Below, in pieces: positions 173-24,821 of a DNA stretch of 32,000 nucleotides. Made by a program: the position numbers and the translations under genes. Every line of letters begins with the position of its first letter. The first letter of the stretch is position 1. The DNA lies in assembly GCF_003428155.1 (NCBI RefSeq), contig NZ_QLIR01000007.1, positions 1 to 32,000 of the forward strand, in the 5' to 3' direction. Below the pieces are notes generated by a model, which was given only the letters and a program-made list of their open reading frames with translations, did no database searches and was not told the origin of the DNA. Source of the stretch: Fastidiosibacter lacustris (GTDB lineage: Bacteria; Pseudomonadota; Gammaproteobacteria; Francisellales; Francisellaceae).

Positions 173-751
173 TTATTGCTCAAATGTACATGTTGGAGCA
201 TTACTCGTTTGTAATATAAACGTTGCAAATCGCTCACCATACAATTCTGCAGTGCGAAGATCTCCAGAGTTTTCTATTCTGCACTGTTCAGACTGTGCCA
301 TTGCCCCTATATTAGAGCCAAACCTATTAATACAATCAACATCACCCCGATCGTATTGCGGTTCTGAAGATTGGTTATTAATTCCCAAGGAAATCCAATT
401 CATTTTATGCTGGCAGGCAAAAATAAATAAGGTCATTAATGTATTAAGCTTATCGCCATTAGTGCTATTTGAGCTAGTAAAACCACCGGCGAATTTATCT
501 TTCCAAGCACTTACCGCCCAACGAGATGAACTTTTGTCCATAAACTGTTTGAAGCCACCAGAAACAGTTCCCATATAAGTGGGTGAGCCAAATAAAATGC
601 CATCATATTGATCCAATACTTCAACATTTGTATTTGCATCAGCAAACACCATATCCACATCCTTAATATGTTTTAATACGCCTTTTTTAACAGCTTCTGC
701 CATTGCTTTGGTTGTGCCATATGAACTGCTGTATACGATTGCGATTTTCAT
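173..751 (-). CDS. flavodoxin-like-fold NAD(P)H:quinone oxidoreductase (WrbA-type)
   Basis: 192-aa ORF. It has the MKIAIVYSSSYGTTKAMAEAV flavodoxin-type N-terminus and an FGSPTYMGTVSGGFKQFMD segment like WrbA-family proteins. GGGAG SD lies 6 nt upstream of the ATG. Confidence 0.7.
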   Translation of the reverse strand: MKIAIVYSSSYGTTKAMAEAVKKGVLKHIKDVDMVFADANTNVEVLDQYDGILFGSPTYMGTVSGGFKQFMDKSSSRWAVSAWKDKFAGGFTSSNSTNGDKLNTLMTLFIFACQHKMNWISLGINNQSSEPQYDRGDVDCINRFGSNIGAMAQSEQCRIENSGDLRTAELYGERFATFILQTSNAPTCTFEQ

Positions 752-803
752 TTATTTCTCCCTTGGTTATTGATTAAAGCAAATCATCAATTCTTTATGT
801 AAT

Positions 804-832
804 TTTAAATTTGTCATATAGATGGTCGTCAA
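804..832 (-). promoter_or_regulatory. candidate sigma70 promoter for the flavodoxin-like gene (TTGACG-N17-TTTAAA on the minus strand)
   Basis: Reverse complement of 827-832 is TTGACG. 804-809 reads TTTAAA on the minus strand. The spacer is 17 nt. Hexamer reading only. Confidence 0.25.
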
Positions 833-845
833 ATATAGCATAATA

Positions 846-2069
846 TTATGTATGCGCTTGCTCACTCTTTGTTTTACATACAGAACTAATAAATTGTTCT
901 ATCCAGATAATTGGAATAATTATTAATGGAGCTGCACTGCATACTAACCATAGCGTATAAATATTGCTTATTGCTATGATCCAAGATCCAATACTGGCAT
1001 AACACAGAAGAACCGCACTGATGGTCATCTGGTACCATATCATATATTCTGCTTGTCTTTGCATGGGTTTACTTAATTTTGCAACATCCGAAAGTAAAAT
1101 AGGCCAAAAAAGAATATCACCTAAACAAATCAAGCCATAGGCTAACCATAGAAACGTTATATGAGATAATCCACTGTAAAGCAGTAAAAAGCCACTACTA
1201 AAAACAATGACTCCAAGTATTAAAGAAACATGATTTCGATACTTGTTTAGTGCGTTCACTAAATAAACCTCTAAACCCAAAATAAATACAAAATCACTTG
1301 CAAGAATCAAGCCAAACTGTGATTTAGATAATCCTAAATACTCAACGTAATATATAGGAATAAATGCGACTGTTTGAAAAAATGCAAACGAGAAAATAGC
1401 AAGTTTTAATAAAATCAATAAAAAAGATTTGTTTAATAATGGATGTTTTTCTTGTGCTAAGCTCGTTTTTTCATCAGCACCCTGTGAGTTTGAAATGTAA
1501 TCCCGTTTTATAAGTAAAAATATACTGACCAATATACTGATTGAAGCAAAGAAAATTGCCATTAAGAGATAGGATATATCAGCCATTAACCCGCCGATTA
1601 AAATACCAATGGTTCCCCCTGTACTAATGCATACTCGGTACAATGCGTAAGCATTTTTTCTGATTAATTCATCCTCTATTTTTGCTAACCGGTATTGAAA
1701 TCCCGGTCTATAGAAGGCTCCAAAAACACCAATGAAAAAGAAATAGCACAGTAAAATTTGCGTGTGGTGAGACAAAAATATTGTGCCAAAATTTAGGATT
1801 GAAAGACCTGCAAATGAAATGGTGACTACCACCGTTGGCTGAAATAATTTAAGCAATTTACCAGTGAGTTTTGTACCTATAATTGATCCAGCTCCAGATG
1901 CACTTAAAGCATAACCAATATCAATAATGTTAACTTTGACATATTGCTGCAGAAATAATGAATAAAATGAACTATATGCAGTACCAATGTAAGCAAATCC
2001 AAAAACGAAGATTAATATTAATATATCTTTTGGGATTAGTTTGAACGCTTTTTGATAGGATTTAATCAT
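846..2069 (-). CDS. MFS transporter (putative exporter of the operon product)
   Basis: 407-aa ORF made almost entirely of hydrophobic helices in a ~12-TM pattern. Its start overlaps the stop of the upstream propeller gene by 8 nt. Confidence 0.7.
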   Translation of the reverse strand: MIKSYQKAFKLIPKDILILIFVFGFAYIGTAYSSFYSLFLQQYVKVNIIDIGYALSASGAGSIIGTKLTGKLLKLFQPTVVVTISFAGLSILNFGTIFLSHHTQILLCYFFFIGVFGAFYRPGFQYRLAKIEDELIRKNAYALYRVCISTGGTIGILIGGLMADISYLLMAIFFASISILVSIFLLIKRDYISNSQGADEKTSLAQEKHPLLNKSFLLILLKLAIFSFAFFQTVAFIPIYYVEYLGLSKSQFGLILASDFVFILGLEVYLVNALNKYRNHVSLILGVIVFSSGFLLLYSGLSHITFLWLAYGLICLGDILFWPILLSDVAKLSKPMQRQAEYMIWYQMTISAVLLCYASIGSWIIAISNIYTLWLVCSAAPLIIIPIIWIEQFISSVCKTKSEQAHT

Positions 2070-3867
2070 GCAGTACCTCTATATGTCTAGGAACTAGTTG
2101 TTCATCATGTATTTGCATGATTTTTAACTGCTTATAACGCCCATATACTAGAAATGTATAACCATCTTCAGATAAGTGAAGCAATCCTTTTGAATAGTCT
2201 AAATTATCATAACATTCATCCAAAACTGTCCCATTTTGATAATCGATTAAAAAAATCCTTTTGGCATAGGTTATGGCAATTAAGTACTTTGAGTCTTGAG
2301 TAATCAAATAATCTTCGACTGTGTTCTTCCCAATCTCGAATTCATCTTGATTATGATGCCATTCGCCATTTATATATTGAATCCTATCTATTGAAGAGCT
2401 TCTAGTAACAAGTAGGTCATGACCATGCCATTTCATTCTCTTTGGAAGATAAGATGAAGTTTTGGCCACTTCAATTAAATTGTTGTTGTGATTTAATGTG
2501 AAAACATATAAATTTCCTACTCGCTCAGCAACCGCGATAAAACTATATGTATGGCTATAAGCTAAACTCCATAAAGGCGCATTGAGTATAAACTTGGATA
2601 TAATACTTCTTTTCTTTAGACAGACAACAAAGAGGGTGTAATTTTCACAGGCTACAAATAGTTGATCGTGACCAACACAAATATCTCTTACCACACTACC
2701 AATTCCAACAGTTTTAATTAATCTAAGTTTGCATTGATCAAAAATATAAATAACCCCATCAGTCGAACCACAAATTAAGTCATTTTTATAGGAGACTACT
2801 CTCTTATAATAACTAGTTCCTTTAACACATACTTCAGCATGATTGAAAATTAGTTGATTGACCTTAAAGTTAAACTTTAAAACTCGATTACAATCGCCAC
2901 CTAAATATATTGAATGATTATTCAAATTAACACATGAGCTCCAAATACAAAAATCGCCACCACTTTTTAATGTTTGTTTCTTCCCAGTCTCAATGTTAAT
3001 TTTATACAAAGACCCATCTCTAACTTGTGCTAATACATTTTGATCATTTATATGGCGTATCCATCGAATTTTAAAAGGCAAATGTGCAAGCACAGATTTT
3101 ACTGCAAGTGTATTCAAATCAATATTGTAAAGTTTTTTATCAAAGCTTGAAGCAATAAGCTGTTTTGTTTGCTTATTATATGTAACGTGTTCTAGATCAT
3201 CATGTGAGACTTCTTCACTATATTCATAGTTTATTGGATTGTTTAAATGAAATTTAAAAAGCCTTCTTGCATCGCTAGCAGCTACAAATTGATCATTTTC
3301 AATATGCTCAAACCAATGAATAGTTTCATTACTTTCTGTAAATTTCACCGAAGTGAACAGTTGATTTGATTCTAAATTATAGATGTAAATTTCTCCACGA
3401 TTTGTGCCTGCAAGTAAAAATTTTTTGTATACTCTCAAAGTGACAATTGCGTGATGAACCTCTTCCCCAAAAACTGCTATCACTTCGCCAATCATAGTTA
3501 CTCGTACAATAAAGTTGCGTGGTGTTACAAAAAATACTTCCTCCGAATTAGAATTAAAACAAATTCCTTGCCCTTCATTATGAACAATAGGACGAGTAAA
3601 TTTTTCTGGAGTTAGATCTCTATAAAATATCCTTGCTATTGGTTTTATATCATTTTCACAAGATAAAATATAAACAAAAAAATCTTTCCCTAGAGTGGCA
3701 ATATATGGTTTGTTACAATGACTAGCTATTGCTTGGATAGTACCATTATGGAGCTTATAGTCTTTAATTAACGACATATCATCAACATTCAAATGAATAA
3801 TATTACCTTCTTTGTCTCCCGCATAACAACTTGACCCTATAACAGCAAAAGAATTTATGTGATACAT
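2062..3867 (-). CDS. divergent beta-propeller repeat protein (second propeller of the operon)
   Basis: 601-aa ORF with recurring ~40-aa blade-like units (GTNRGEIYIYNL, GSTDGVIYIFD, ERVGNLYVFTL, DKKLYNIDL). It lacks canonical WD dipeptides. It is translationally coupled to the downstream MFS gene. Confidence 0.5.
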   Translation of the reverse strand: MYHINSFAVIGSSCYAGDKEGNIIHLNVDDMSLIKDYKLHNGTIQAIASHCNKPYIATLGKDFFVYILSCENDIKPIARIFYRDLTPEKFTRPIVHNEGQGICFNSNSEEVFFVTPRNFIVRVTMIGEVIAVFGEEVHHAIVTLRVYKKFLLAGTNRGEIYIYNLESNQLFTSVKFTESNETIHWFEHIENDQFVAASDARRLFKFHLNNPINYEYSEEVSHDDLEHVTYNKQTKQLIASSFDKKLYNIDLNTLAVKSVLAHLPFKIRWIRHINDQNVLAQVRDGSLYKINIETGKKQTLKSGGDFCIWSSCVNLNNHSIYLGGDCNRVLKFNFKVNQLIFNHAEVCVKGTSYYKRVVSYKNDLICGSTDGVIYIFDQCKLRLIKTVGIGSVVRDICVGHDQLFVACENYTLFVVCLKKRSIISKFILNAPLWSLAYSHTYSFIAVAERVGNLYVFTLNHNNNLIEVAKTSSYLPKRMKWHGHDLLVTRSSSIDRIQYINGEWHHNQDEFEIGKNTVEDYLITQDSKYLIAITYAKRIFLIDYQNGTVLDECYDNLDYSKGLLHLSEDGYTFLVYGRYKQLKIMQIHDEQLVPRHIEVLHD

Positions 3868-3868
3868 A

Positions 3869-3879
3869 TGTGAGCACTA
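3869..3879. repeat. inverted-repeat arm 1 (TGTGAGCACTA)
   Basis: Perfect reverse complement of 4076-4086. It lies 1 nt from the ATG (3865-3867) of the propeller gene. Confidence 0.9.
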
Positions 3880-4075
3880 CCTTTTAATTAATGTGAGTTT
3901 ATTTTTTTTAAAAAATATAAAGAAATAAAAAGTTATTTGGATGATCTCTTGACTTAAACGTTGTATTTGGCATGTTTTCCCCCTTCCTATTTGCTAGAAT
4001 TATTACTAGGTAATACTGAAACAGCTTTATTTTGATTAATAATCATAATTTTTTCCTCTATGTTGTTTGTTATAA

Positions 4076-4086
4076 TAGTGCTCACA
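4076..4086. repeat. inverted-repeat arm 2 (TAGTGCTCACA)
   Basis: Perfect reverse complement of 3869-3879. It lies 9 nt from the stop codon (4096-4098) of the FGE-domain gene. Confidence 0.9.
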
Positions 4087-4095
4087 CATATATCA

Positions 4096-5070
4096 CTAAA
4101 TTTCTACTAATCTAAACCCCATGACATAAATATCCTTAGAAAACCGCCCATGCCTTCTTGTTGTTCGGGCTAAATCATGATGTCTAGTAAAAGACCCGCC
4201 TCGTGCAATACGATATTCATCGATATCACCCAAATCATCAATTACCGCTTTTCCATTAGGGTATGGACGATAATAATCTTGTACATATTCTTCGACATTC
4301 CCAGACATATCTGAAACCCCAAATGGTGAATTTCCCTTGGGGAAAATACCCACGGGGGTACTGGAATAAAGCCCTGTCTCCAGTGTGTTGCATAGATTGG
4401 GCTTATATTCATTTCCCCAAGGATATTCATAATGAGCTGGACCTGAAGCAGCATACTCCCATTCATATTCGGTTGGTAACCTGAAAAATCTTCCCGTTTT
4501 TTTGGACAACCATTGAGTATATGAAATTGCGGCGTCATCAGAGATACTATAAACAGGGTGATTTGATTTCAAATACGGGTAAATGCCAAATTCCCAACTA
4601 CTAGGGAGCTCACAATATTTTGTATCTAATAAAAAGTCGTAATAATTCTCATTAGTTACCAGGTATTTAGATACTTTAAATGCTTTAACCATAACAGTAA
4701 ACTTAGGAACTTCCTTTAGTATCCATTCTTTCTTCACCCCCAATTGATTAAATCTGTCAAAAACTTCATAAGCCTTATTGATATTGATACCAATTTCAAC
4801 CTCTCCTGCGGGAATTTCAATCATTTTTGGGGTAATGGTTGAAGTTCTTGGATCCCCCATCAAACCTAAGAGAATACCTGCAGCATAGCGATATTCAAAA
4901 AGCTCATGGGACTCAGCTGTTAAGACAAGTTCATGCTTATTGCATTTTTTAATATGCAGCAACGCATTAGATAGATTAGGGACTCTCGTATCAACACTAT
5001 GCATTGACAGACCCATTGCTTCGCGATCATCCATTTGATTGATTATCTTTTTTATATCAGAAACAAGCAT
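4096..5070 (-). CDS. formylglycine-generating-enzyme (FGE/SUMF1, ex-DUF323) domain protein, ToxD-like
   Basis: 324-aa ORF. It carries the C-terminal FGE-sulfatase signatures MSGNVEEYVQDYY and RIARGGSFTRHHDLARTTRRHGR. Its start lies 1 nt after the stop of the RibD paralog. Confidence 0.7.
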   Translation of the reverse strand: MLVSDIKKIINQMDDREAMGLSMHSVDTRVPNLSNALLHIKKCNKHELVLTAESHELFEYRYAAGILLGLMGDPRTSTITPKMIEIPAGEVEIGININKAYEVFDRFNQLGVKKEWILKEVPKFTVMVKAFKVSKYLVTNENYYDFLLDTKYCELPSSWEFGIYPYLKSNHPVYSISDDAAISYTQWLSKKTGRFFRLPTEYEWEYAASGPAHYEYPWGNEYKPNLCNTLETGLYSSTPVGIFPKGNSPFGVSDMSGNVEEYVQDYYRPYPNGKAVIDDLGDIDEYRIARGGSFTRHHDLARTTRRHGRFSKDIYVMGFRLVEI

Positions 5071-5071
5071 T

Positions 5072-6178
5072 TTATAGTTTCCTTATCTCAGGACGGATGG
5101 GTTTCCATACCGCTTTAATATCATTTCCAGATGGTGAGGTGTGATCTAATGAAAAGTGTAGACAATTTTGTAATGTTCTTATTTGATCAAACCAAACGGA
5201 AGATTTGCTGTGATTACCTAATGGTTTTGGTGAAATATAGGTTATATATTCATCAACAAGATCTTCTTTGAAGAAACCACCGGCTAAATCAGCCCCACAC
5301 TCCACTAAAAGATAATTAATATTTCTCTTTGATAAATCCTCTACAATAAACGTCAGGTTTATTTTTCCATTTATTGACGGTGCTTTGACAATCAATAAAT
5401 TTTGTAGTTTAAGAAGATATTTAGGAATCTCATTTTCTTTCTTTAAAGTATAAACAATTATTTTTGCTTGAAACTTAATAATATTATCCACTTCTGAAAT
5501 GAACAAAGATGAATCCAAAATAACACAAACAGGTTGTTTTATTTCATGTAATCCTATATCTATACTCTTTGGCAACTCTCTAACAGTTAATTTACAGTCA
5601 TCCTGTTTTATTGTTTTTATGCTGGTAAGAACAGCATCTGACATTGCACGTATATGGTGAACATCCCTTCTTGAGTGATCACAACTAATCCACTTGCTAT
5701 TATTTGTACAATCAGCAATTTTTCCATCTAATGTAATTGCTTGTTTAAGCACTACCCAAGGACGTTTATAGTCAAACCTATGGAAATAACCTTTGTTTAA
5801 TTCTATATATTTGCTCTGTAGTTCTACTGATTGCAACTGCCTAATGCTTATCCCTTCCTTTTTTAGTGAATCAATTCCTTTTCCAGCAATCAGAGGGTTT
5901 GGGTCTGGCAATAAATAGATCACATCGGTAATCTTAGACTCAATAATCTGCTCACAACATGGTGGAGTTTTGCCAAAATGACAACAAGGCTCTAAGGTAA
6001 CATACATTTTTATATTGAGTGACTCTGAAGTTATTTTAGGGGTATGTTCAAGTGCTAAAATCTCAGCATGTTTCCCACCATATGATAAATGCGCTCCTTC
6101 CGAGATAATATGTCCGTCATGGACAATAACACACCCAACCATTGGATTAGGACTTGGTATAGCGACCTTGCTTAGCAA
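5072..6178 (-). CDS. RibD-like bifunctional pyrimidine deaminase/reductase paralog (ToxE-like), with disrupted 5' end
   Basis: 368-aa ORF with PNPMVGCVIV, GGKHAEILAL and VTLEPCCHFGKTPPCC zinc-deaminase motifs plus a C-terminal reductase-like half. The ORF-track start is a TTG. The canonical N-terminus MDRAIQLAKQGRYTKS is encoded from the ATG at 6197 in another frame (see finding). Confidence 0.75.
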   Translation of the reverse strand: MLSKVAIPSPNPMVGCVIVHDGHIISEGAHLSYGGKHAEILALEHTPKITSESLNIKMYVTLEPCCHFGKTPPCCEQIIESKITDVIYLLPDPNPLIAGKGIDSLKKEGISIRQLQSVELQSKYIELNKGYFHRFDYKRPWVVLKQAITLDGKIADCTNNSKWISCDHSRRDVHHIRAMSDAVLTSIKTIKQDDCKLTVRELPKSIDIGLHEIKQPVCVILDSSLFISEVDNIIKFQAKIIVYTLKKENEIPKYLLKLQNLLIVKAPSINGKINLTFIVEDLSKRNINYLLVECGADLAGGFFKEDLVDEYITYISPKPLGNHSKSSVWFDQIRTLQNCLHFSLDHTSPSGNDIKAVWKPIRPEIRKL

Positions 6179-6219
6179 GTTGAATTGCTCTATCCATAAA
6201 AATACAATCTTGCTCTAGT

Positions 6220-7917
6220 TTATAACCTCTCATAAATATTTCCATTATAGCTACTAGCTAAAAAACATTTTTGATCAGCATTGTAGATCATGCATGATAT
6301 CCCTGAGGTACACGGTCTAAAATTTTGCCATAAGCCACTGTCTAAATGATATATATAAATATCACCATAATAACCACCCGTAGCAATAAATTTCTTATCA
6401 TCGCTTATAGCAATACATTTAATGGAGTGCTTGTGCGGTGTATTAATAATGCTTTGCTCAGTAAGACTAGTTAATCTTAGTGTTAAGTCTCTACTTACTG
6501 AGACAAATTTATTGTCTTGATAATAAATACATCCATTAATGATTTTATCATGGGCGTTTTCTAAGCGTTTCACACAGTTAAAGTCATGTATTGAATGAAA
6601 TGCAGCATTGCAGTTTGCACTTACTGAATAAATAAAATCCTGTGATGTAGCTATCGATTTTATTGCATTATCATGAGCTTGAATTAGTTGGTATAAATTT
6701 AATGCCGCGCCATTTATCTTAAGGATGACAATGTCGCCTGTATAGGTGCCAATGGCAACATAAGTGCATCCATTGTTTAAATATTTAATAGCACAGTTTA
6801 TAGGTGAGTGGTGTTGATAAACGCTCGTGACGCCCTCACCATTTACCTGATAAACTGTACCAGTTTGTCCCCCAACTAATAAAAATTGATCAACCTTGAT
6901 GATAAAGTTACATAAACTTGGAACATCTGAAAGTGAATATTTATATTTTTTTCCATTAACACTCCTGCAGATTACAGCTCCCGCATCACCAACACTGAAA
7001 ATATCATCATCGCTTTTACAGATGGCATTAATACCAGAGGTAGGTATCACATTAGTTAAGTCCCAGCTACCTGATTCGATATTTAACTTGGCGTAACTTG
7101 ATCCAAATGTTGATACAACTAAGCTATTTTCATTCTGAAAATCACAAGATCTAGCCCAGATTTGATATGGGTAGGGCATTTTCTTAACCAAAACGAGATC
7201 ATTATTACTTGAAACTTGCCAAATAGCTAAATACCGATCATAGCTCAAGCTAATAAGCTGACTAAATTCTTGTGAGTATAATAATCGTTTAATCCCAGCG
7301 TTATGTGCTTTAATCACTGATATCTCATCATTTTCAAATATATAGATTTCTCCTTTATCGTTGCCAGAAAAAATACATTCGGCACCTTTAACTGCAATTG
7401 TATCGGTCTCTATCCCTTTGAGATCTGTTGAGTTAAGTAGTTTTCCTGTAAATGGTGACCATCTTTTTATCGTTCCATCATCACTACTACTAATGGCAAT
7501 TTCATCGTTAAGCCAAGATACTGATAATACATCTTGTTTGTGTCCTTTAAGTATATGGATAAGATTGCCTTCAATATCACAAAAATAAATATTATGGTCC
7601 CTTGAGGTAAAAATAATGTACTTATCAGAAGGGTGAAATGCAACACCTTCTGTATCATCTTTAGCAAATGTAAATATGGCTAAACAGTGTAACTCAGGTA
7701 CCGACCAGAGCCGTACAGTATAGTCACTGCTACTTGAAAGTAATAATTGACCATTATGACTAAACACGCACTGATTAACCAGATGGTCATGTGAGACTGA
7801 GGCAATTGCATTGGATTTAGTTGAGTCCCACAAAATTAACTTATTATCATATCCTGCTGTCGCAACATAATTATCCTTGGTGGCAACACCGCTAATTGGG
7901 CTGGAATGCATAGTCAT
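6220..7917 (-). CDS. WD40 repeat protein, ToxC-like
   Basis: 565-aa ORF with canonical WD40 blades (GYDNKLILWD, SSSDYTVRLWS, SSDDGTIKRWS, SYDRYLAIWQ). It has a 4-nt ATGA overlap with the upstream GTP cyclohydrolase II gene. Confidence 0.75.
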   Translation of the reverse strand: MTMHSSPISGVATKDNYVATAGYDNKLILWDSTKSNAIASVSHDHLVNQCVFSHNGQLLLSSSSDYTVRLWSVPELHCLAIFTFAKDDTEGVAFHPSDKYIIFTSRDHNIYFCDIEGNLIHILKGHKQDVLSVSWLNDEIAISSSDDGTIKRWSPFTGKLLNSTDLKGIETDTIAVKGAECIFSGNDKGEIYIFENDEISVIKAHNAGIKRLLYSQEFSQLISLSYDRYLAIWQVSSNNDLVLVKKMPYPYQIWARSCDFQNENSLVVSTFGSSYAKLNIESGSWDLTNVIPTSGINAICKSDDDIFSVGDAGAVICRSVNGKKYKYSLSDVPSLCNFIIKVDQFLLVGGQTGTVYQVNGEGVTSVYQHHSPINCAIKYLNNGCTYVAIGTYTGDIVILKINGAALNLYQLIQAHDNAIKSIATSQDFIYSVSANCNAAFHSIHDFNCVKRLENAHDKIINGCIYYQDNKFVSVSRDLTLRLTSLTEQSIINTPHKHSIKCIAISDDKKFIATGGYYGDIYIYHLDSGLWQNFRPCTSGISCMIYNADQKCFLASSYNGNIYERL

Positions 7918-15960: not shown

Positions 15961-16147
15961 CTGAAAGCCTTTTTAGATGATGCAATCCTAGAGCTTCCTT
16001 TCTTAACACAGAGATTACACATGGAATTTCAATGACACAATCTTATGGAAAAACAATTAATTGGAGATGTACAGGTTTTAAAGTTTTCAGTACTCTCCCA
16101 GACTCAAAATCGAGAAAAAAATGAAAATATAGCTTCGGGAGTAGAGA

Positions 16148-17398
16148 ATGCTTTATAGGGAACTGTTATCAAGAGTGAGGCTATTTAAAAATCAATCATA
16201 TGTCTTTTTTGCACTGAGTGGAATTGCCGCAACGATTGGCAATGGATTGGTGTATATTACAACCTCCTGGTACGCATATGAGTATTTTCAGTCAATTAGC
16301 GGTGTGGCATTGTTGATGTTTTGTATTTGGGCGCCCAGCATTATTTTTGGTCCTTTCTTTGGGGTGTGTGCTGATAGATACAATAGAAAAATGATATTGG
16401 TGCTCTCCAATGTTGTAAGAGGGGTTGCTATTTGTCTTTTCGTACTACTGGAACTTCTAAATTGGCACAATAATATATTTGTTTTGGCCATCGTATTAGG
16501 CGTTTTTGTCTCATTCTATATGCCTGCGGCTATTCCTATGATTACTCAGATTGTTAAAGAAGAAGACTTACCTAAGGCAAATGCCACGGTTGATATGCTT
16601 TATGAAGTAGGTACGATCATTGGAATGGGGCTTAGCGGTGTTTTCATTTATGCTTTTGGGAGTGTTTGGACTTTGTTTGTTGGTGGGATCTTATTTATAG
16701 TATCTGGGTATTTTAATGTACTGATGAGGTACCAACACGATAAAAAAGAGGTGCTCAATAGGCAAAGCACTTCTTTCATACGAGAGTATATCGAGTCAAT
16801 CAAATACATTTTTAACAAAAAAGGCTTAGTGTCTGTCTATCTTGTCCAAACGTTTGTTATGGTATTGCTGATGACCATCCCTGTTTTGTTAGTTCCTTAT
16901 GTGAATCAGGTATTGCATGCAAATAGCCGAATTTTTGCTTTGTTTGAGATGGTTTATTCAATGGGTGTATTTATTGGTTGCTTTTTCACACCGATGCTAT
17001 GTGAAAAGTTAAGGTTTAGAGTAACCGTAGCGTCACTGATGTTTGTCATGTTCCTTATGTTATTACTGATTGCCACTAACCTCAGTATGGTGATAAGCCT
17101 TATTTCCTATTTTGTTATTGGCTTTTGTTTATCCAGCTGGGCACTATCAATTGCTCAGGCGCAAATACACACGGATGTTGCATCCCAGGGTAGGGCGCAA
17201 TCAACTTTTAATAGCTTGTCAGGCATAGGCATTTTAATATTGTATTTGCTGGTCACTTTTGAAGGAAAAACGCTGCATACCCAAGCTTTATATTTTGCTG
17301 AAGCGATAATCGCTTTAGTAGGTAGTTTGATTGTTATCCTAGCAACGACGGAGCCTCAGAAAGTGGCAGAGCATAGCGCTGGGGGCAGATTAAAGTAG
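16148..17398 (+). CDS. MFS transporter (EntS/MFS_3-like)
   Basis: 416-aa ORF with a ~12-TM pattern. The loop motif GVCADRYNRKMILVLSNVVRG is typical of this MFS subgroup. GGGAG SD. Confidence 0.75.
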   Translation: MLYRELLSRVRLFKNQSYVFFALSGIAATIGNGLVYITTSWYAYEYFQSISGVALLMFCIWAPSIIFGPFFGVCADRYNRKMILVLSNVVRGVAICLFVLLELLNWHNNIFVLAIVLGVFVSFYMPAAIPMITQIVKEEDLPKANATVDMLYEVGTIIGMGLSGVFIYAFGSVWTLFVGGILFIVSGYFNVLMRYQHDKKEVLNRQSTSFIREYIESIKYIFNKKGLVSVYLVQTFVMVLLMTIPVLLVPYVNQVLHANSRIFALFEMVYSMGVFIGCFFTPMLCEKLRFRVTVASLMFVMFLMLLLIATNLSMVISLISYFVIGFCLSSWALSIAQAQIHTDVASQGRAQSTFNSLSGIGILILYLLVTFEGKTLHTQALYFAEAIIALVGSLIVILATTEPQKVAEHSAGGRLK

Positions 17399-17465
17399 TT
17401 ACAAAACATTTCAGGTTATGAGCTGTCAAGCCTTTTTAGATGGGACAGCCATGGCTATTTCAGGT

Positions 17466-17496
17466 AACAAAAACGATTGAACGCAAAGTAATCATG
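17466..17496 (+). repeat. 31-bp direct repeat, left copy (AACAAAAACGATTGAACGCAAAGTAATCATG)
   Basis: Identical to 23602-23632. It overlaps the stop codon (17492-17494) of the GCS2-like gene. Confidence 0.95.
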
Positions 17497-18493
17497 AGTT
17501 AAATGCTAAAGGCGCTGCTGACGTATAGCATTGTTTTATACAGCAAATAATTTCATCTGGGCTATATGCACTATCAAAGCAGCGAAATTCAATAAGTGGG
17601 GCATTATTATAAATGCGTGGTCTAGCTGCGTATAGATAATTGCTTTTGAAGCGTACATCATCTTCGTATGGAGGCGCTCCAAATAAATGGACTACTGCTT
17701 TTTTGCCTGCAGCAGCACTGGCTGAGTTAGCTAAAACGTATTCAATTAACCATCGTCCATGTAGATCTATCCAATTGAGGATATCATTTCTACATGAATT
17801 GCGACCTCTATTTCCATTGCTGTAAGTGTAAAAGTTAACTGATTTTCTCAGAAAATCCAAAAAATTATGGTAAAAAAGATCGTTAAAATCCCTGTTTTTT
17901 GTCAGAAACCAATGAGAGTGGCTGAGTGTGATATTTAATGAAGTGAAGCCTGCAAAACGTAGTGCTACATCGTGAAAGTTTATCGTTTGACATGGGAAGG
18001 GCGGGGAGAATTTTTGAGTAATCAATAGTGCTTTATTTGCATCTTGGGGGTCCAGTAAAATTTCATGTAAGTTACATACCCTATTCGAGCCGAGATCCAT
18101 GAACCTTCCAAAGGCAGCGGAGTAAGAGTCACTTAAAGTTAAACTCGGTAGTTGGAAGGACACAGCCAACTGATTGACTAAGTAAACAAGTATGCTTTCC
18201 ATGAGCTTTAATTCAGTGACTAACTCATCTAATTGCGCTATAGTCTTTGGAGGAGAGATGATTTCAATAATGGCATGGCTGTATTCTGGCTCAACCTTCC
18301 AGCCCTTGTCCAAGAGAGCAGTTAGAATGTTTGATTTTTTACAGCCTACGTAAATAAATTTTCTATAGAGGGTAAAAAAATCCCTTGATGCCAAAACGAA
18401 GGTGAGCTCATTATCTGTGAGACATTGAGCAACAAATGTATATTCCTTCTCGATACCTACTCGTGTCGTCATAGACATGGTATTTTTTTCCAC
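17492..18493 (-). CDS. glutamate-cysteine-ligase family 2 (GCS2)-like carboxylate-amine ligase
   Basis: The N-terminal VGIEKEY, AIIEIISPP and C-terminal PLIEFRCFDS resemble the GxExE / E..E / lExRxxD motifs of GCS2/YbdK-type ligases. The likely real start is the ATG at 18472 (ATGA overlap with the upstream stop) or at 18478. Confidence 0.5.
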   Translation of the reverse strand: MEKNTMSMTTRVGIEKEYTFVAQCLTDNELTFVLASRDFFTLYRKFIYVGCKKSNILTALLDKGWKVEPEYSHAIIEIISPPKTIAQLDELVTELKLMESILVYLVNQLAVSFQLPSLTLSDSYSAAFGRFMDLGSNRVCNLHEILLDPQDANKALLITQKFSPPFPCQTINFHDVALRFAGFTSLNITLSHSHWFLTKNRDFNDLFYHNFLDFLRKSVNFYTYSNGNRGRNSCRNDILNWIDLHGRWLIEYVLANSASAAAGKKAVVHLFGAPPYEDDVRFKSNYLYAARPRIYNNAPLIEFRCFDSAYSPDEIICCIKQCYTSAAPLAFNS

Positions 18494-19689
18494 TTAATGA
18501 GATGAGATTCTGATAAAACTCTCATGTTTTGTTCAACCTCCTGTTTGTCGTTGCCAATAATGACATAACTAGCCATTCTATTATGTATTCGTTCACGCTT
18601 GTAAAAGCGATCACCTACCTTTGTTTTAATTTCTTCGGCTGTGACCCATGACAAGGATTCAGCGGTATTCACCTGTAAGATTTCAGCCATTTCAGGTGCA
18701 GGAATATCTAGCCAACCTGCACATAATGAGCGTTGAATTTTCTGAGTATAAGGTATTCCAAGTTCTTGAAGGAACCATTTCTGAGCATAGTTGATGCCTG
18801 TGGCAGCTTCTATTGCAGTCACAAGAAAAGTACCTCCGAACCTTGCTCCAATTTCACAAAAATAAATTTCTCCATCAGAGGTAACAAAATATTCAGCGTG
18901 GGTGCATCCATTAGGAGGTGATAAAGTATTTATTACTAACTCATTTATAGAATGTAACTCTTGAATCAAGGTATCGTTTCTTGTTTGTATTATTCCACCT
19001 ACTTCTGAGGTTTGTAAGTGTACGGGTGGCTTAGTGTATTTAAATGCAAATGAACATTCTATTTTGTTATGGTTAATAAAGCTATCTACATGGTACATCT
19101 CACCACCAATAAAGCTTTCTATCATATACATTTCAGGATTGAAATACACATCCTGAATTGCCTCCTGAAATTGCTGCTCACTCTCCACTATAAACACATT
19201 CATACTAGCCATACCCAAACGTGGCTTGATAACAAAAGGCAATCCATATTTTTGGGAGAGGTTATTGAAATGTAAGTGCTCAATAATATTTATGTCAGCA
19301 AGTGAGGCATATTTTGGTAATTTAATTCCCTTATTCATCAATTCCTTTTTCATGGTGTATTTATCTCTGAAACGCAGGATATCAGCTATCTTGGGTCCAG
19401 GGATTTTATGAAGCATACGTAATGTTGCTGCAAGGTGCATATCTTCTTCAGAAAAGCAAATTAGGTGATCCACACCTCCTATGGTGTTAATAAGAGTTGT
19501 ACATAACTCGACTGTTAGTTCATCTGCTACTACAAAAACGCTGCACTTTTGTTTCCACTCATTAGGAACAAGCTCAGCATATTTTTTTGTGCCAATAAAA
19601 TAAAAGTCGAACAAATCGGCATCGGCGATTTCATGATAACGAATAAGCTCGTATCGGATTTTATTGAACACTAATACTTTGTCTCGCAT
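18469..19689 (-). CDS. ATP-grasp ligase (L-amino-acid-ligase-like), paralog 2
   Basis: 406-aa ORF with LPFVIKPRLGMASMNVFIV, MIESFIGGEMYHVDSF and HAEYFVTSDGEIYFCEIGARFGG ATP-grasp motifs. Its ATG abuts the upstream TAA (TAAATG), with AGGAG inside the upstream gene. Confidence 0.75.
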   Translation of the reverse strand: MRDKVLVFNKIRYELIRYHEIADADLFDFYFIGTKKYAELVPNEWKQKCSVFVVADELTVELCTTLINTIGGVDHLICFSEEDMHLAATLRMLHKIPGPKIADILRFRDKYTMKKELMNKGIKLPKYASLADINIIEHLHFNNLSQKYGLPFVIKPRLGMASMNVFIVESEQQFQEAIQDVYFNPEMYMIESFIGGEMYHVDSFINHNKIECSFAFKYTKPPVHLQTSEVGGIIQTRNDTLIQELHSINELVINTLSPPNGCTHAEYFVTSDGEIYFCEIGARFGGTFLVTAIEAATGINYAQKWFLQELGIPYTQKIQRSLCAGWLDIPAPEMAEILQVNTAESLSWVTAEEIKTKVGDRFYKRERIHNRMASYVIIGNDKQEVEQNMRVLSESHLIKWKKIPCL

Positions 19690-20910
19690 TTATATCTCCT
19701 CATGGTACTCAATGAATTGATGTTCCTGTAAAGTTCGAAAATCTTGTTCCAAAATGTGGTCATCTTGGTCTATCAGCATAATCGTGGCTGCTCTGTCATA
19801 GCATGATATTGATGCACCTATTCTTTCAAATGTTTGAACCTTCCAGTTTATATCAAACTTCTGACTAGCAAGACGTGGCAAAATGAATTGTTTTATCAGA
19901 CCTGCTTTCTTAGGTACATATATCCAAGCGGCGCTCATCAACTTCTCAGGGGTTATTTTTTGAGAACTTAAACCGAGTTCAAGCATAAATAAATAGGCGG
20001 CTATATCTAGACCTAGGGCATATTCATACATGGGTAAGATTTCTCCTCCTGGTGGGCGTGCCGCAATTTCGATAAATACAAGATTGTCATTGTTGGTGAG
20101 GAATAACTCCATATGAGTCATCCCATCAGGGGGAGATAGCGCCTTTAAAACTGACTCATTAAAACAGCGTATTCTGTCCTTTAATTCAGAGTTTGCAAGC
20201 AGCCTGCTTCCCAAATTGTTTCCATGCATGAAGTCTATTGCATTACCCATATATTCGCATACTTCTACAAATAGAATTTTCCCTTGGCAAACAATGCTAT
20301 CACAATGCAAAAATCTACCTTCTATATATTCCTCAAAGTTATAATCAGCCAGATTTGGTTGATTCCCCTCGACGACCCCTTGTAACTCTGCTTTATTACG
20401 TACTTTTTTTGCACCAATCCCTCCACTGCCATCTTTTGGTTTTACGATCAAGGGAAACCCCAAAGAGGATATAGTATTGACACAGTCGCCAATGCTCATG
20501 TTATCAAAGTCATCATCTATAAATTGTGGAACCTTGATTCCGTTCCGAAATAATATGGATTTCATGATTTTTTTATCTCTAAATGGGATGAGTTTGTCCT
20601 CATATGGACCTGGTAAATCAAAACGTTTTCGGATTCGAGCACACAGCAAAAGCAATTCCTCATCCCAACAAATAAGCTTCAATCTGCTGTTATAACTGGC
20701 ATATCGTTGAATGATGGTGGCAATAGATGTTTCATCAAAATTTTCGAGTTTAATGAGTTCATCGAAGGTATCTTTATGCTGATCTGGAAATCGATGATAA
20801 AACTCTTCGTCAAGTAAAATAATAAACTTATGTTTATTTGCATCGTAGAATCGATGTGGATTTAGTTTGTCATATCGCATTTTCAGTATAATAACGTATA
20901 TATCCTGCAT
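19690..20910 (-). CDS. ATP-grasp ligase (L-amino-acid-ligase-like), paralog 1
   Basis: FPLIVKPKDGSGGIGAKKV, FEEYIEGRFLHCDSI and HMELFLTNNDNLVFIEIAARPPGG motifs. I prefer the ATG at 20910 (GGAG SD 6 nt upstream, 406 aa like its paralog) over the ORF-track TTG at 20937. Confidence 0.75.
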   Translation of the reverse strand: MQDIYVIILKMRYDKLNPHRFYDANKHKFIILLDEEFYHRFPDQHKDTFDELIKLENFDETSIATIIQRYASYNSRLKLICWDEELLLLCARIRKRFDLPGPYEDKLIPFRDKKIMKSILFRNGIKVPQFIDDDFDNMSIGDCVNTISSLGFPLIVKPKDGSGGIGAKKVRNKAELQGVVEGNQPNLADYNFEEYIEGRFLHCDSIVCQGKILFVEVCEYMGNAIDFMHGNNLGSRLLANSELKDRIRCFNESVLKALSPPDGMTHMELFLTNNDNLVFIEIAARPPGGEILPMYEYALGLDIAAYLFMLELGLSSQKITPEKLMSAAWIYVPKKAGLIKQFILPRLASQKFDINWKVQTFERIGASISCYDRAATIMLIDQDDHILEQDFRTLQEHQFIEYHEEI

Positions 20911-20911
20911 G

Positions 20912-21742
20912 TCATGCTCCAGCGGTTTTTTGTACAAGGTTAAGGTTTATTTGAGATAAAAGCGTGTCTGCTTTGCGATAGTCTTTAACCATTTTTATTA
21001 GATCGTGGAACTCAGCCCACTGTTGTAATTCAAGGATGCTGAAATGTAAGCACATCTTCCATTGTTCAGTGTCTTTAATTAAATCTACCATCTGTTTTGA
21101 TGGAAAAGTTGAAAAGTAGGCGTTCACAAATGCTGTATATCTCGACTGTGCTTGATAGCGATTGATACTTGGAACAGTACAACATTCAACAATGGCAATA
21201 GCAAAGTCAATTATTGGATCACCCCAATTAGATTCTTCATAATCAATAAATGTATTAAATTTACCTTTAACGAACAAACAGTTTGGTAAACAAACGTCTC
21301 CATGCAGATAACATTGTATTCCAGAGACTTTCCATCCATTTTCAAGTAGTGTATGGTGAATTCTAACAGGTTGTGAAGAGAAGAGCGCATCGCCTATATG
21401 ATCTATCTGTATGCTGCTGTGAAACAATGCTAAACCGGTGGCAATTCCCTCAATATCCTTCAAATCAGGGCTGTTTTTGCATGTTTCTCCTAAATTTGGA
21501 AAAATTGCACAATGGTTTTCGTCGTCAAAATAAACTTGTGGCATGCTATTTTGCAGAATATTCCATGCGTATTTTTCACGATGATATGCTTTAGGGAGAT
21601 GAAATTTTTTCAAGTAATAAAGGTTACCTAATAGATTAAATGACACTACATAGTTTGCGCGACCATGAGACTTTTCTGCTTTGCACAAAAGTTCGACTTG
21701 CCATTTATACTGAGACCTAAACTGAACAGTAATATCGGTCAT
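20912..21742 (-). CDS. APH/choline-kinase-type phosphotransferase
   Basis: 276-aa ORF with the catalytic-loop motif YLHGDVCLPNCLF and the IDYEESNWGDPIIDFA motif typical of the aminoglycoside-phosphotransferase-like kinase family. Confidence 0.7.
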   Translation of the reverse strand: MTDITVQFRSQYKWQVELLCKAEKSHGRANYVVSFNLLGNLYYLKKFHLPKAYHREKYAWNILQNSMPQVYFDDENHCAIFPNLGETCKNSPDLKDIEGIATGLALFHSSIQIDHIGDALFSSQPVRIHHTLLENGWKVSGIQCYLHGDVCLPNCLFVKGKFNTFIDYEESNWGDPIIDFAIAIVECCTVPSINRYQAQSRYTAFVNAYFSTFPSKQMVDLIKDTEQWKMCLHFSILELQQWAEFHDLIKMVKDYRKADTLLSQINLNLVQKTAGA

Positions 21743-21759
21743 ATTTCCCCCCCCCTAAT

Positions 21760-22932
21760 TTAAACATCTTTGCATACGGCTTTGCGCAACAGAAGCATTT
21801 TAAAGAGTGTGACTAGCGTTGCTATGAGCATGACAATGCATAATAGCCACAAGTGATGGTTGCTAGTTGTCATAAACACTGGTAAGAAGTTAATAACAAT
21901 GGGGGTTAAAATGGCCAAAATGACTTTGGATGTACCAAAAGTGGTACTTTTATTTTGAAGATTACCCATCAAAGTTAGGAGATTGGTAAATTGGGTGATT
22001 ACCAGGGACTCAAGAATGGTGAAAACGATTAAGAAGGCGTATACAGAACCTATGCTTGGATATAATCTTACTGCGGACAAAAGCAGTATCAAAACAGTTG
22101 AACATGCTATAAACAACCATCGCGCCTCGCTTAAGGACAGCCGCATCTTTTGCGATACATATTGTTGAATAGCAACAAGCAAAACACCATTGAAAAACTG
22201 TGCCATAGCAACTTGCTCAGGTAAGTGTAGTAAAGTACTAAACAAATAGGGGAATATGACTGGGAAGGAAGCGACAAGCGCAAATGGTATGCAACAAAAT
22301 AGATGCAATTTAATAAAGTCAATATTCAAAATCCCTGACCAAGTTTCTGTGGGTTTTGGTTTTTTGTTTACTTCTTGATAGCAAGAAAAATGTGGCGTTT
22401 TTACTAACATAAAGAAACAAAGCAACAGCTCCAGAATCAAGCACACGATAAGTAAAGAATATAATGCTGACAACCAGATAAAACACAAAGCCAAGAGACT
22501 TCCAAGCACGGCACCCAGGTTGGTTGCTCTCAAAAAAGCGCCTTGGGACATGATTGTGGTTTTGTCATTTTCAGATAGCATAACCAATACGGCTCGAGCA
22601 TTCGTGCTGAATACACAGCCACCTATGCCTAAGCCCATGACACCTAAGGTCAAGAAATATACATGATCACTCAAGCACAATATAAGGTATGATAGCACAT
22701 CAATAGCGCAACCTATGAGCATAAGCCTGTGTACGCCAAATCTATCACCTAGCACCCCTGCGGGTAATGCAAATCCCTGGTTAGTAAGCAATAAAACAGA
22801 AAACATCATAGGAATGAGCGTGATAGAAATGTTGATACTTTGTGCATAGAGGTAAAAAATCCCCAGAAAAGCTGCGTAAGTTGTGGAGGAAGCCAGTCGG
22901 CGCGCAATAATAATGGTTTGTATATTCTGCAT
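21760..22932 (-). CDS. MFS transporter
   Basis: ~390-aa polytopic ORF with the MFS loop GVLGDRFGVHRLMLIG. The ATG at 22932 is preceded by AAGGAG. Confidence 0.75.
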   Translation of the reverse strand: MQNIQTIIIARRLASSTTYAAFLGIFYLYAQSINISITLIPMMFSVLLLTNQGFALPAGVLGDRFGVHRLMLIGCAIDVLSYLILCLSDHVYFLTLGVMGLGIGGCVFSTNARAVLVMLSENDKTTIMSQGAFLRATNLGAVLGSLLALCFIWLSALYSLLIVCLILELLLCFFMLVKTPHFSCYQEVNKKPKPTETWSGILNIDFIKLHLFCCIPFALVASFPVIFPYLFSTLLHLPEQVAMAQFFNGVLLVAIQQYVSQKMRLSLSEARWLFIACSTVLILLLSAVRLYPSIGSVYAFLIVFTILESLVITQFTNLLTLMGNLQNKSTTFGTSKVILAILTPIVINFLPVFMTTSNHHLWLLCIVMLIATLVTLFKMLLLRKAVCKDV

Positions 22933-22943
22933 CAATTTTCTCC

Positions 22944-23489
22944 TTATCTAGATAAAATAGATAAATATGGATAAGAAATAGAGATATCAGCGGCGAAAAG
23001 GGTCTGCTTGAGAAATTTATCTGTTAAAAAAACATAATCCCATAAGGTGATGTAAAGACCATAGCGTATGGTTGGATATTGATGATGAGTCATGTGGTAT
23101 TCTCCCCAAGCAAATAGAGTTGTAAGCTTGCCTTTAATTTCCGAATTGTGGTCTAAAACGGTTTCTGATAAAAAAACTTCGTATAAATAAACAAGGAGGA
23201 GTAGTACGCCACCAGTTGAAGGAAAGGGCAAGGCGAGGACGAGTGCTGGCAGAATTAAAGTAAGTCAGACATCTAAAGATTCCCTCAAGCCACCAAACCA
23301 CAACAAATAGTTTTGCCAAGTTGGCAAGCTCAGCTTGTTAAGCTGATGATATTTTATCAAATGGTGTGCTTTGTGGATTTTAAATAATGGGTTACGCCGA
23401 GGATTATAATGCGCAAGGGCATGCACGCCATAAGCGTAAAGAGACCATATCAGAAACACAAATAGAAAATTAACAATCCACTGGGTCAT
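22944..23489 (-). pseudogene. fatty-acid hydroxylase / sterol-desaturase-family gene interrupted by one in-frame TGA
   Basis: His boxes HALAH, HKAHH and HMTHH are spread over two ORFs (23265-23489 and 22944-23231). These ORFs are in the same frame and are separated only by the TGA at 23265-23267 plus 11 sense codons. The ATG at 23489 has an AAGGA SD. Confidence 0.6.
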
Positions 23490-23517
23490 AGGATATCCTT
23501 GAAAATAAATTTTATAA

Positions 23518-23546
23518 AACGTATCAAGTTGTAATATTTTTGTCAA
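23518..23546 (-). promoter_or_regulatory. candidate promoter of the ligase operon (TTGACA-N17-TACGTT on the minus strand)
   Basis: The reverse complement of 23541-23546 is a perfect TTGACA. There is a weak -10 at 23518-23523. It lies ~30 nt upstream of the ATG at 23489. Confidence 0.3.
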
Positions 23547-23601
23547 TGCCGTTTCGATGAGATTTTATATATGAACAGCGATAACTGGGGAGAGTGAAAT
23601 G

Positions 23602-23632
23602 AACAAAAACGATTGAACGCAAAGTAATCATG
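23602..23632 (+). repeat. 31-bp direct repeat, right copy
   Basis: Identical to 17466-17496. It contains the -35 hexamer of the putative rlmN promoter. Confidence 0.95.
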
Positions 23633-23640
23633 TGTATAAT
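23613..23640 (+). promoter_or_regulatory. candidate sigma70 promoter of rlmN (TTGAAC-N16-TATAAT)
   Basis: Hexamers at 23613-23618 and 23635-23640, about 60 nt upstream of the rlmN ATG. Confidence 0.45.
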
Positions 23641-23702
23641 GCCTGGGTTGAAAGAGCATCCACCATAAGTAAGTTTAAGTTAGGCAAATAGAGTAATCAA
23701 TA

Positions 23703-24821
23703 ATGCAGCAGGTGATTGAAAGTCAAATAAAAACAAATTTAATGAATTTTTGTCAAAAAGATATGCGAGACTACTTTGCCAGTATCGGAGAGAAGTCATT
23801 TCACGCAAAGCAGGTGTTTAAATGGATACATCAAAAAGGCGTGACTTCTTTTGAGGAAATGAGTGATCTTAGTAAGGCTTTGCGGCAGAAACTCATTGAG
23901 CTTGCGGAAGTTGTTACTCCTAAAGTGGCACTTGACAAGCCATCGAACGATGGTACGCATAAATGGCTTATTGATGTCGGTGGTAACTTGGTTGAGACCG
24001 TTTACATTCCCGAGGATTCTCGTGGGACATTATGTGTATCTTCACAGGTGGGTTGTAGCTTAAACTGTAGTTTTTGCTCAACAGGTAAGCAAGGCTTTAA
24101 TCGCAATTTGAGCGTTGCCGAAATCATTGGACAAGTATGGACAGCAGTGCGTACACTTTCAAAGCAGCATGGTGAGTATGATCGACAAATTACTAACGTC
24201 GTGATGATGGGGATGGGTGAACCCTTGATGAATTTCGATGCAGTAGTAAAAGCGATGGATATCATGATGGATGATCTGGCTTATGGGTTATCCAAACGTC
24301 GAGTTACCTTAAGCACATCAGGGGTCGTGCCGCGCATTTATGATTTATTGGAACAATCAGATGTATCCTTGGCCGTGTCTTTGCATGCACCTAATGATGC
24401 GCTTAGAAATGTATTAGTGCCTATTAATAAGAAATATAATATTGACCAGCTAATGGAGGCATGCAAATTATATGCGCAAAGAGGTCCACACAAGGAAATC
24501 ACCTTTGAATATACGCTAATGGAACATGTCAATGATGAGCTAGCACATGCAAAAGAGCTAGTTACACTATTGAAGTCAAAACAGGTACCCGCTAAGATCA
24601 ACCTTATCCCATTTAATCCTTATCCTGGCACGCCATACAAGAAACCAAGTAATAACCGCATCCATCGCTTTCAGCAATATTTAATGGAGGCGGGCTTTGT
24701 TACAACGATAAGAAAAACCAGAGGTGATGATATCGATGCCGCATGTGGTCAGTTGGCAGGTAAAGTGCAAGATAAAACAAATCGCCAGGCACGATATCAG
24801 CGTCAACTAAGTGAGGCATAA
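23703..24821 (+). CDS. rlmN: 23S rRNA (adenine2503-C2)/tRNA methyltransferase, radical SAM
   Basis: 372-aa [19 protein letters not shown]-terminus, [18 protein letters not shown] radical-SAM cluster motif and a C-terminal DIDAACGQL. Confidence 0.92.

Follow-up and report, generated by a model that had tools for sequence, protein, structure and literature searches.

A cargo-only six-gene operon between perfect 31-bp direct repeats at the rlmN promoter of Fastidiosibacter lacustris, and its precise empty site in a sister strain

How did a complete six-gene operon come to stand between two identical copies of a short piece of the promoter of a core gene? The question is raised by the first 32,000 nucleotides of contig NZ_QLIR01000007.1 of Fastidiosibacter lacustris (assembly GCF_003428155.1), the stretch that we refer to as the window, in which a 6.1-kb islet carrying an accessory ligase operon lies directly upstream of rlmN. 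An initial annotation of this DNA had reported a perfect 31-bp direct repeat around the islet, with 38 of 41 positions matching when the similarity is followed further, and this is borne out by both an exact search and a repeat finder. The 31-mer AACAAAAACGATTGAACGCAAAGTAATCATG occurs in two exact copies on the + strand of the window (17466-17496 and 23602-23632); no further match was found there with up to 3 mismatches allowed, and 0 of 100 dinucleotide-preserving shuffles of the window gave any 31-mer match. The repeat finder describes the pair as 41 nt long with 93% identity (38/41) and a spacing of 6136 bp, which makes it the longest high-identity direct repeat of the window. In the 10-bp extension beyond the perfect core, AGTTAAATGC stands against TGTATAATGC with 7/10 matches, a similarity that may be due to chance since a binomial estimate gives P ~0.01 (match probability ~0.3).

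The evidence that carries the answer comes from a close relative, 'Candidatus Nebulobacter yamunensis', whose 10,919-bp contig JAMBMW010000030.1 (L094) covers the same locus without the islet. The average nucleotide identity between this organism and F. lacustris is 99.38% (PMC9837558). 'Ca. Nebulobacter yamunensis' is an obligate endosymbiont of the ciliate Euplotes and F. lacustris is cultivable, and the two have been reported to be almost indistinguishable (PMC9837558). The features of the window that enter the comparison are the following.

16148-17398, + strand: major facilitator superfamily (MFS) transporter gene of the left flank (Pfam MFS_1, 5.6e-39), which adjoins rlmN in the empty site
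17466-17496: left 31-bp copy (exact match), an attL-like junction from native DNA (left) to islet DNA (right); its left flank is that of the empty site in L094
17497-17506: 10-bp stretch of the islet with a 7/10 match to the native -10 region, in which the operon's final gene has its last codons (A F N S)
17497-23601, − strand: the islet proper, a six-gene operon with its own upstream region; 6105 bp absent from the sister strain
23602-23632: right 31-bp copy (exact match), an attR-like junction from islet DNA (left) to native DNA (right); its right flank is that of the empty site
23703-24821, + strand: rlmN, the core gene of the right flank (NCBIfam RlmN equivalogs, 529 and 474 bits)

In L094, 168 bp with a single 31-mer separate the MFS gene (7328-8578, encoding a 416-aa orthologue) from rlmN downstream of it (8747-9865). 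Aligned by blastn, L094 6606-8686 corresponds to window 15427-17506 and L094 8646-10796 to window 23602-25752, and the two alignments overlap in L094 by exactly the 41-bp repeat region. Moreover, the empty junction predicted from the window, in which 17401-17496 is joined to 23633-23760 (224 bp), is present in L094 at 100% identity. The initial annotation had suggested that related genomes be searched for an empty site, and had held that removal of one copy together with the intervening DNA would leave a simple MFS-promoter-rlmN junction; the site was found with its boundaries where they had been predicted, and that junction is exactly the L094 arrangement. The protein data are in line with this picture. 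The islet proteins that were checked have cluster members from F. lacustris only; for most of the flank proteins checked, the cluster includes a near-identical second protein on contigs of 10,919 or 20,678 bp (the MFS transporter, RlmN, a TPR protein, the start of a patatin-like protein and riboflavin synthase on the 10,919-bp contig). The nearest single-nucleotide polymorphisms between the strains are at 17184, 282 bp left of the left copy, and at 24177, 545 bp right of the right copy, so there is no tract of foreign flanking DNA on either side. Many genomic copies of the 31-mer would, according to the initial annotation, have spoken against the scar model; neither L094 nor the other loci compared contain an extra copy, and the metagenome and viral collections gave none. 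Because the empty site is exact and the islet proteins checked have no member in the sister strain, we regard the two copies as the junctions at which a cargo-only islet was inserted or deleted, and the earlier proposal that they are attL/attR-like scars is thereby supported.

The two copies are not equivalent. The left one sits between the MFS gene on the + strand (16148-17398) and the last minus-strand gene of the operon (17492-18493), whose TGA stop (17494-17492) falls inside the repeat. The right one overlaps the promoter of rlmN.

23613-23640, + strand: native rlmN promoter TTGAAC-N16-TATAAT (scan score 10/12), with its -35 inside the right repeat copy
Window 23590-23660, L081 9871-9960, L085 6571-6660, L089 9871-9960 and L092 4657-4746: conserved rlmN promoter regions

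The claim that the right copy supplies the -35 hexamer of this promoter was thus confirmed by the scan. Caedibacter, Cysteiniphilum and two metagenomic relatives share the block from TTGAACGCAAAGTAATCA to TATAAT in front of rlmN, in the form (A/C)ATTGAACGCAAA(G/A)TAATCA..TGTATAATGCC or one very similar to it. Each Caedibacter locus, and likewise that of the sister strain, has the 18-mer TTGAACGCAAAGTAATCA a single time and always upstream of rlmN, and the promoter spacer GCAAAGTAATCA is likewise conserved across genera whose RlmN is only 84-91% identical to that of the window. No second copy of their own rlmN promoter was found within 10 kb in the relatives, where matches reached at most 15 nt. 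Judged from this conservation, the right repeat copy is part of the native rlmN promoter. The -35 is present in the left copy as well, but there the -10 reads TTAAAT and lacks the key A at position 2, and this copy fails the promoter scan. The initial annotation had supposed that the left copy would fire antisense into the operon, and with the -10 damaged and no promoter called this idea is weak. Expression of rlmN should be unaffected by the islet, since after the duplication rlmN still has in front of it the -35 together with the 11 bp that precede it, the spacer and the -10.

The DNA farther upstream of rlmN differs from lineage to lineage. It encodes a resistance-nodulation-division (RND) pump in Caedibacter, rplT and an amino-acid permease in Cysteiniphilum, rplT in one of the metagenomic lineages, and an unrelated MFS gene plus 2 kb in the other. 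The gene order downstream of rlmN is common to the window, Cysteiniphilum and one metagenomic relative. In the protein database, RlmN of the window is 91% identical to those of both Caedibacter taeniospiralis and Cysteiniphilum litorale; among species-representative genomes the nearest is Francisella, with RlmN at 74% identity and no synteny. A conserved promoter beside varying upstream DNA could mark a regulatory binding site, a point of recurrent rearrangement, or both.

What, then, is the cargo? Six back-to-back minus-strand genes fill the DNA between the repeats and leave no spare open reading frames (ORFs), and two of them encode ATP-grasp ligases, in agreement with the earlier statement that everything between the copies is the accessory ligase operon. 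The features are given in the order of transcription.

23518-23546, − strand: candidate operon promoter TTGACA-17-TACGTT (relaxed consensus scan 9/12, a pattern match only)
22944-23489, − strand: first gene, fatty-acid-hydroxylase-like di-iron membrane protein, a probable pseudogene whose ORF halves match both ends of Pfam FA_hydroxylase
21760-22935, − strand: second gene, MFS transporter and putative exporter (Pfam MFS_1, 3e-19)
20912-21742, − strand: third gene, APH-family small-molecule kinase (Pfam APH, 3.5e-9)
19690-20937, − strand: fourth gene, ATP-grasp ligase of the L-amino-acid-ligase type (Pfam ATP-grasp families; best Protein Data Bank (PDB) relative 4wd3, 7.6e-15)
18469-19689, − strand: fifth gene, ATP-grasp ligase of the L-amino-acid-ligase type (Pfam ATP-grasp_4 and ATP-grasp_3; best PDB relative 4wd3, 4e-19)
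17492-18493, − strand: sixth and last gene, an ORF of 333 aa (326 and 328 aa in the deposited versions) belonging to a rare family

The candidate promoter is the best one in the 112 non-coding bp at the right end of the islet. The hydroxylase-like gene runs in a single frame with one in-frame TGA (23267-23265), at a column where its homologues have V or W, and a TGG-to-TGA change is for that reason the simplest reading. The TGA itself (23265-23267, minus strand) could be a nonsense mutation or a sequencing error. For both ATP-grasp proteins the closest solved relatives are the L-amino acid ligases 4wd3 and 3vot. The NCBIfam equivalogs for dapdiamide DdaF and bacilysin BacD appear in the hit lists far below the cut-off, and ATP-grasp orthologues are few.

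The 333-aa protein gave no matches to Pfam, NCBIfam or PDB sequences and has 15 relatives among 1.84 billion representative proteins, which share the motifs GIEKEY, PEYSxALIEVxSPP, FAGFTSTH, YAARPRI and EFRCFHS (alignment A1). The product of the window continues for about 5 residues more than its homologues after its EFRCFDS motif, and its stop TGA lies inside the repeat. An AlphaFold model built from the family alignment reached a mean predicted local distance difference test (pLDDT) score of 88.5, and the best 50 Foldseek matches listed against the PDB were all glutamine synthetases or gamma-glutamyl-amide synthetases, with E values down to 5e-5 and template modeling (TM) scores of only 0.34-0.44. 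With the moderate support that this model lends, the protein is probably a third ATP-dependent carboxylate-amine ligase with a glutamine-synthetase-like fold. From its gene content, the operon probably makes a small peptide-like compound. The gene clusters built around L-amino-acid ligases, such as those of bacilysin (BacD), rhizocticin (RizA), dapdiamide (DdaF) and tabtoxin (TabS), likewise combine ATP-grasp ligases with an MFS transporter. However, the islet differs from them in its set of genes, with two such ligases, the protein of predicted glutamine-synthetase-like fold, a kinase of the APH type and a small di-iron hydroxylase.

The operon is not confined to F. lacustris. The same six genes in the same order are found on four Logan contigs (L096-L099, 52% GC) and on one JGI contig (L100, 47% GC); the last two genes are present as a partial module in L101 (28% GC), and a decayed remnant of the module occurs in the metagenome-assembled genome L095 of a member of the Francisellaceae (45% GC). 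Protein by protein, the homologues share 34-56% amino-acid identity, and the genomes that carry them span 28-52% GC. The module adjoins a resolvase in L096-L099. This distribution suggests that the islet is a transferable module. Around the module in L096 and L098, no flanking repeats comparable to those of the window were found, only short chance matches. In L096 (1-6100) and L097 (1-6100), both from the metagenomic organism with 52% GC, the module lies beside a serine resolvase and XhoI- and Eco57I-type restriction-modification genes, and L097 also has a Saf_2TM-SAVED gene; the surroundings have the look of a mobile or defense-island neighborhood. A defense-system reading of the islet, to which these restriction-modification and SAVED genes had given rise, was rejected, as the islet proteins had no PADLOC match.

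We consider that the islet is probably explained by the Campbell model, in which one crossover inside the 31 bp joins a circle to the chromosome. A circular copy of the islet with one 31-mer would undergo a single exchange with the same 31 bp in the promoter of rlmN, and this reciprocal crossover would leave one hybrid copy on each side of the islet. The reverse crossover between the two copies would remove the islet and bring back the empty site that L094 shows. The circle, the enzyme and the direction in which the event ran are all elements that we infer. The catalyst is not encoded by the islet. It is possible, and we put this forward tentatively, that it is a site-specific recombinase supplied from elsewhere in the genome, by analogy with cis-mobilizable elements; such a trans-acting enzyme fits because the core is sharp and perfect and the target is conserved. 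Somewhat doubtful, in our view, is that host homologous recombination acted on the short homology, which needs no special enzyme and does act on short repeats in this lineage, as in the deletion within a neighboring ABC-F gene described below. It would be improbable, though it may be mentioned, that the rlmN promoter block is a dedicated attachment site for an unseen trans-acting recombinase that shuttles recombinase-less cassettes among the Fastidiosibacteraceae; such a site would explain why different upstream DNA (the RND pump, the amino-acid permease, rplT, the MFS gene) stands beside a conserved promoter and spacer.

Several observations weigh against this crossover scheme. The islet and flanking ORFs contain no recombinase or transposase domains in Pfam and NCBIfam scans, and no tRNA or tmRNA gene was found in the window, as the initial annotation had noted when it found no integrase, transposase or tRNA inside the islet or at its edges. 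No recombinase is known to us that uses this rlmN-promoter site, and neither a circular form nor an attP-type junction was found; the 22-mer core of the repeat had no match in the metagenome and viral contig collections. There is also little room for classical attP arm sites, with the left junction in the last codons of a gene and 112 non-coding bp at the right. The trans-acting recombinase is weakened by the absence of a known cognate element and by this lack of arm-site room, and the homologous variant would need a prior, unexplained joining of a 31-bp promoter fragment to the operon donor. Composition does not point to a recent arrival either: the GC content of the islet is 0.377 vs 0.356 and 0.375 in the flanks, and its codon usage, GC content at third codon positions (GC3) and tetranucleotide distance lie within the flank range. 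A comparison of composition with the flanks had been proposed earlier, and its host-like outcome was uninformative about a foreign origin. Host-like composition fits long residence, whereas the perfect 31/31 identity of the copies fits a recent event. Finally, with two genomes compared, gain in F. lacustris and repeat-mediated loss in 'Ca. Nebulobacter' both fit.

Two established kinds of element were tried for the repeat and set aside. A transposon or insertion sequence does not agree with an islet that has no transposase, with ends that match at no more than 9/25 positions in any register, or with a duplication of 31 bp. An Xer/dif site is not apparent, as the best match to E. coli dif is 14/28 and random 90-nt windows give a mean of 14.1, with the reservation that the dif of this lineage may differ.

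The strongest rival concerns polarity and timing and leaves the nature of the repeats untouched. It holds that the islet is old in the lineage and that the only recent event was its loss from 'Ca. Nebulobacter' by recombination between the 31-bp repeats, and we give it close to an even chance. The GC content, GC3 and tetranucleotide usage of the islet match the host although the module homologues are only 34-56% identical, the nonsense TGA in the first gene speaks of decay, a short-repeat-mediated deletion took place 2 kb away in the ABC-F gene, and both genomes carry more than 100 pseudogenes (PMC9837558). On the other hand, the left copy, although unselected, has kept 31/31 identity with the right one, an argument against an old duplication, and if a 41-bp duplication had drifted, the calculated probability that all 3 changes would fall in the last 10 positions is ~0.01. 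Parsimony gives no direction, as there is no outgroup with the islet or with the MFS-rlmN adjacency; the loci of Caedibacter, Cysteiniphilum and the two metagenomic lineages hold neither islet genes nor an orthologue of the flanking MFS gene and therefore cannot polarize the event. An altogether different route would be one-step illegitimate insertion, in which linear foreign DNA enters a staggered break, or is copied in by template switching at a stalled fork, and 31 nt are copied on both sides with no pre-existing homology and no dedicated recombinase involved. This would give the repeat its origin in a single step and would suit the arbitrary-looking ends of the islet, the left of which cuts the last codons of the final gene, as well as the lack of terminal inverted repeats, of a recombinase and of att-like symmetry; moreover, the 7/10 match at the left joint could be joining microhomology (AATGC). 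However, the right joint has no microhomology, an unusually long stagger would be needed, and random breakage would have been lucky to yield exactly one operon with its own promoter region. Such end joining is rare in Gammaproteobacteria, and to our knowledge a 31-bp target duplication is far above any transposase-type duplication (2-15 bp). Illegitimate insertion appears unlikely.

Two further explanations were considered. The F. lacustris assembly is a draft of 62 contigs (PMC9837558), and at k of 31 or less an assembly graph does not distinguish a circle plus an empty site from an integrated islet, so that a separate 6.1-kb circle, or an islet from another locus, might have been threaded through the shared 31-mer. 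Such an artefact is very improbable, as reads of at least 100 nt span a 31-bp repeat and modern assemblers resolve it, no replication gene was found in the islet with Pfam or NCBIfam, and no PLSDB plasmid carries an orthologous module; in that case, too, the shared 31-mer would have to be read as an attP/attB pair. Scarcely credible is the idea that the 31-mer is a dispersed regulatory or repetitive extragenic palindromic (REP)-like motif that flanks the operon by chance. The unusual conservation of the block across genera, spacer included, could indeed reflect a protein-binding site, but there are 2 copies in 32 kb, 1 in the sister contig and 1 per Caedibacter locus, with no metagenome or viral matches, and a single copy stands in the empty site, where the breakpoints coincide with the repeat.

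Returning to the single crossover between circle and chromosome, its outcome can be set beside several known systems. Cis-mobilizable elements (CIMEs) have been defined elsewhere (PMC6323972). Like CIMEs and the pseudo staphylococcal cassette chromosome (pseudo-SCC) elements at rlmH in staphylococci, the islet has att-type direct repeats, cargo only and a precise empty site, and like a CIME it has no genes for integration, excision or conjugation. It differs in that no cognate integrative and conjugative element, integrative and mobilizable element or integrase is known for an rlmN-promoter site, in that no remnants of a parent recombination module are present, and in that it occupies a promoter and not a tRNA gene or a gene end and the cargo is a single operon with almost no non-coding DNA. 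The islet thus works like a CIME, having the repeats, the empty site and no mobility genes, and its membership is unproven, as there are no parent remnants and no cognate integrase is known. With integrase-driven islands and prophages it shares the succession of native flank, core, element, core and native flank, a 31-bp core in the usual range, a highly conserved target, and signals of the downstream gene that are rebuilt after insertion; in contrast to them, it lacks an integrase and does not lie in a tRNA or tmRNA gene, its composition does not deviate, and it has no room for arm sites. Campbell-type homologous integration and excision, as of a suicide plasmid, similarly duplicates the shared segment by crossover and ends in a precise deletion when reversed. 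A homology of 31 bp is near the lower limit for RecA-dependent exchange. Elements that use Xer and dif (integrative mobile elements exploiting Xer (IMEX), the gonococcal genetic island and pdif modules) are also cargo-only, have repeats of ~28-31 bp and depend on a host recombinase, but the site of the islet is a promoter and not the replication terminus, and its repeat is not dif-like. The phenomenon as such is common in comparative genomics, and the present case is a clean but fairly ordinary gain or loss of genes.

The rest of the window holds further features. The ABC-F ATPase gene to the left of the MFS gene (window 15161-16009; L094 5326-7042) lacks, in F. lacustris, 867 bp that are present in 'Ca. 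Nebulobacter'. The deletion, with its junction near 15427-15444, lies between imperfect ~22-bp repeats, GATTTGTTGG(C/T)TCGTCAAGTA, one in each ABC domain, and 1-bp and 10-bp indels together with split ORFs in L094 suggest decay of the gene in both strains. An ORF of 375 aa with an IS1 InsA-type helix-turn-helix and a TTG start (9880-11007) is located 6.5 kb left of the islet; the stretch around it (L094 838-1363) has 95% identity between the strains vs >99.4% elsewhere, and the sister contig ends just beyond. The only Rfam match in the window is an ordinary flavin mononucleotide (FMN) riboswitch (11313-11505, 101 bits) before the ribD-ribE-ribBA-ribH operon. Adjoining this housekeeping rib operon is a minus-strand cluster (173-9595) that encodes a second GTP cyclohydrolase II (7914-8513), a second RibD-like deaminase/reductase (5072-6178), two WD40 beta-propeller proteins (6220-7917 and 2062-3867), an FGE-sulfatase/DUF323-like protein (4096-5070), an MFS transporter, a flavodoxin-like protein and a LuxR-type regulator. 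We take this cluster to resemble the toxoflavin tox operon (ToxB, ToxC, ToxD, ToxE) without the ToxA methyltransferase.

The islet is an unusually clean natural example of a cargo-only element, in which both junctions, and the empty site that matches them, are resolved to the base. It is one of the few concrete differences in gene content between F. lacustris and 'Ca. Nebulobacter yamunensis', and the putative small-molecule pathway that it specifies includes an exporter of its own. Moreover, the conserved and uncharacterized six-gene module, with its rare family of predicted glutamine-synthetase-like fold, is a possible source of a new peptide-like metabolite.

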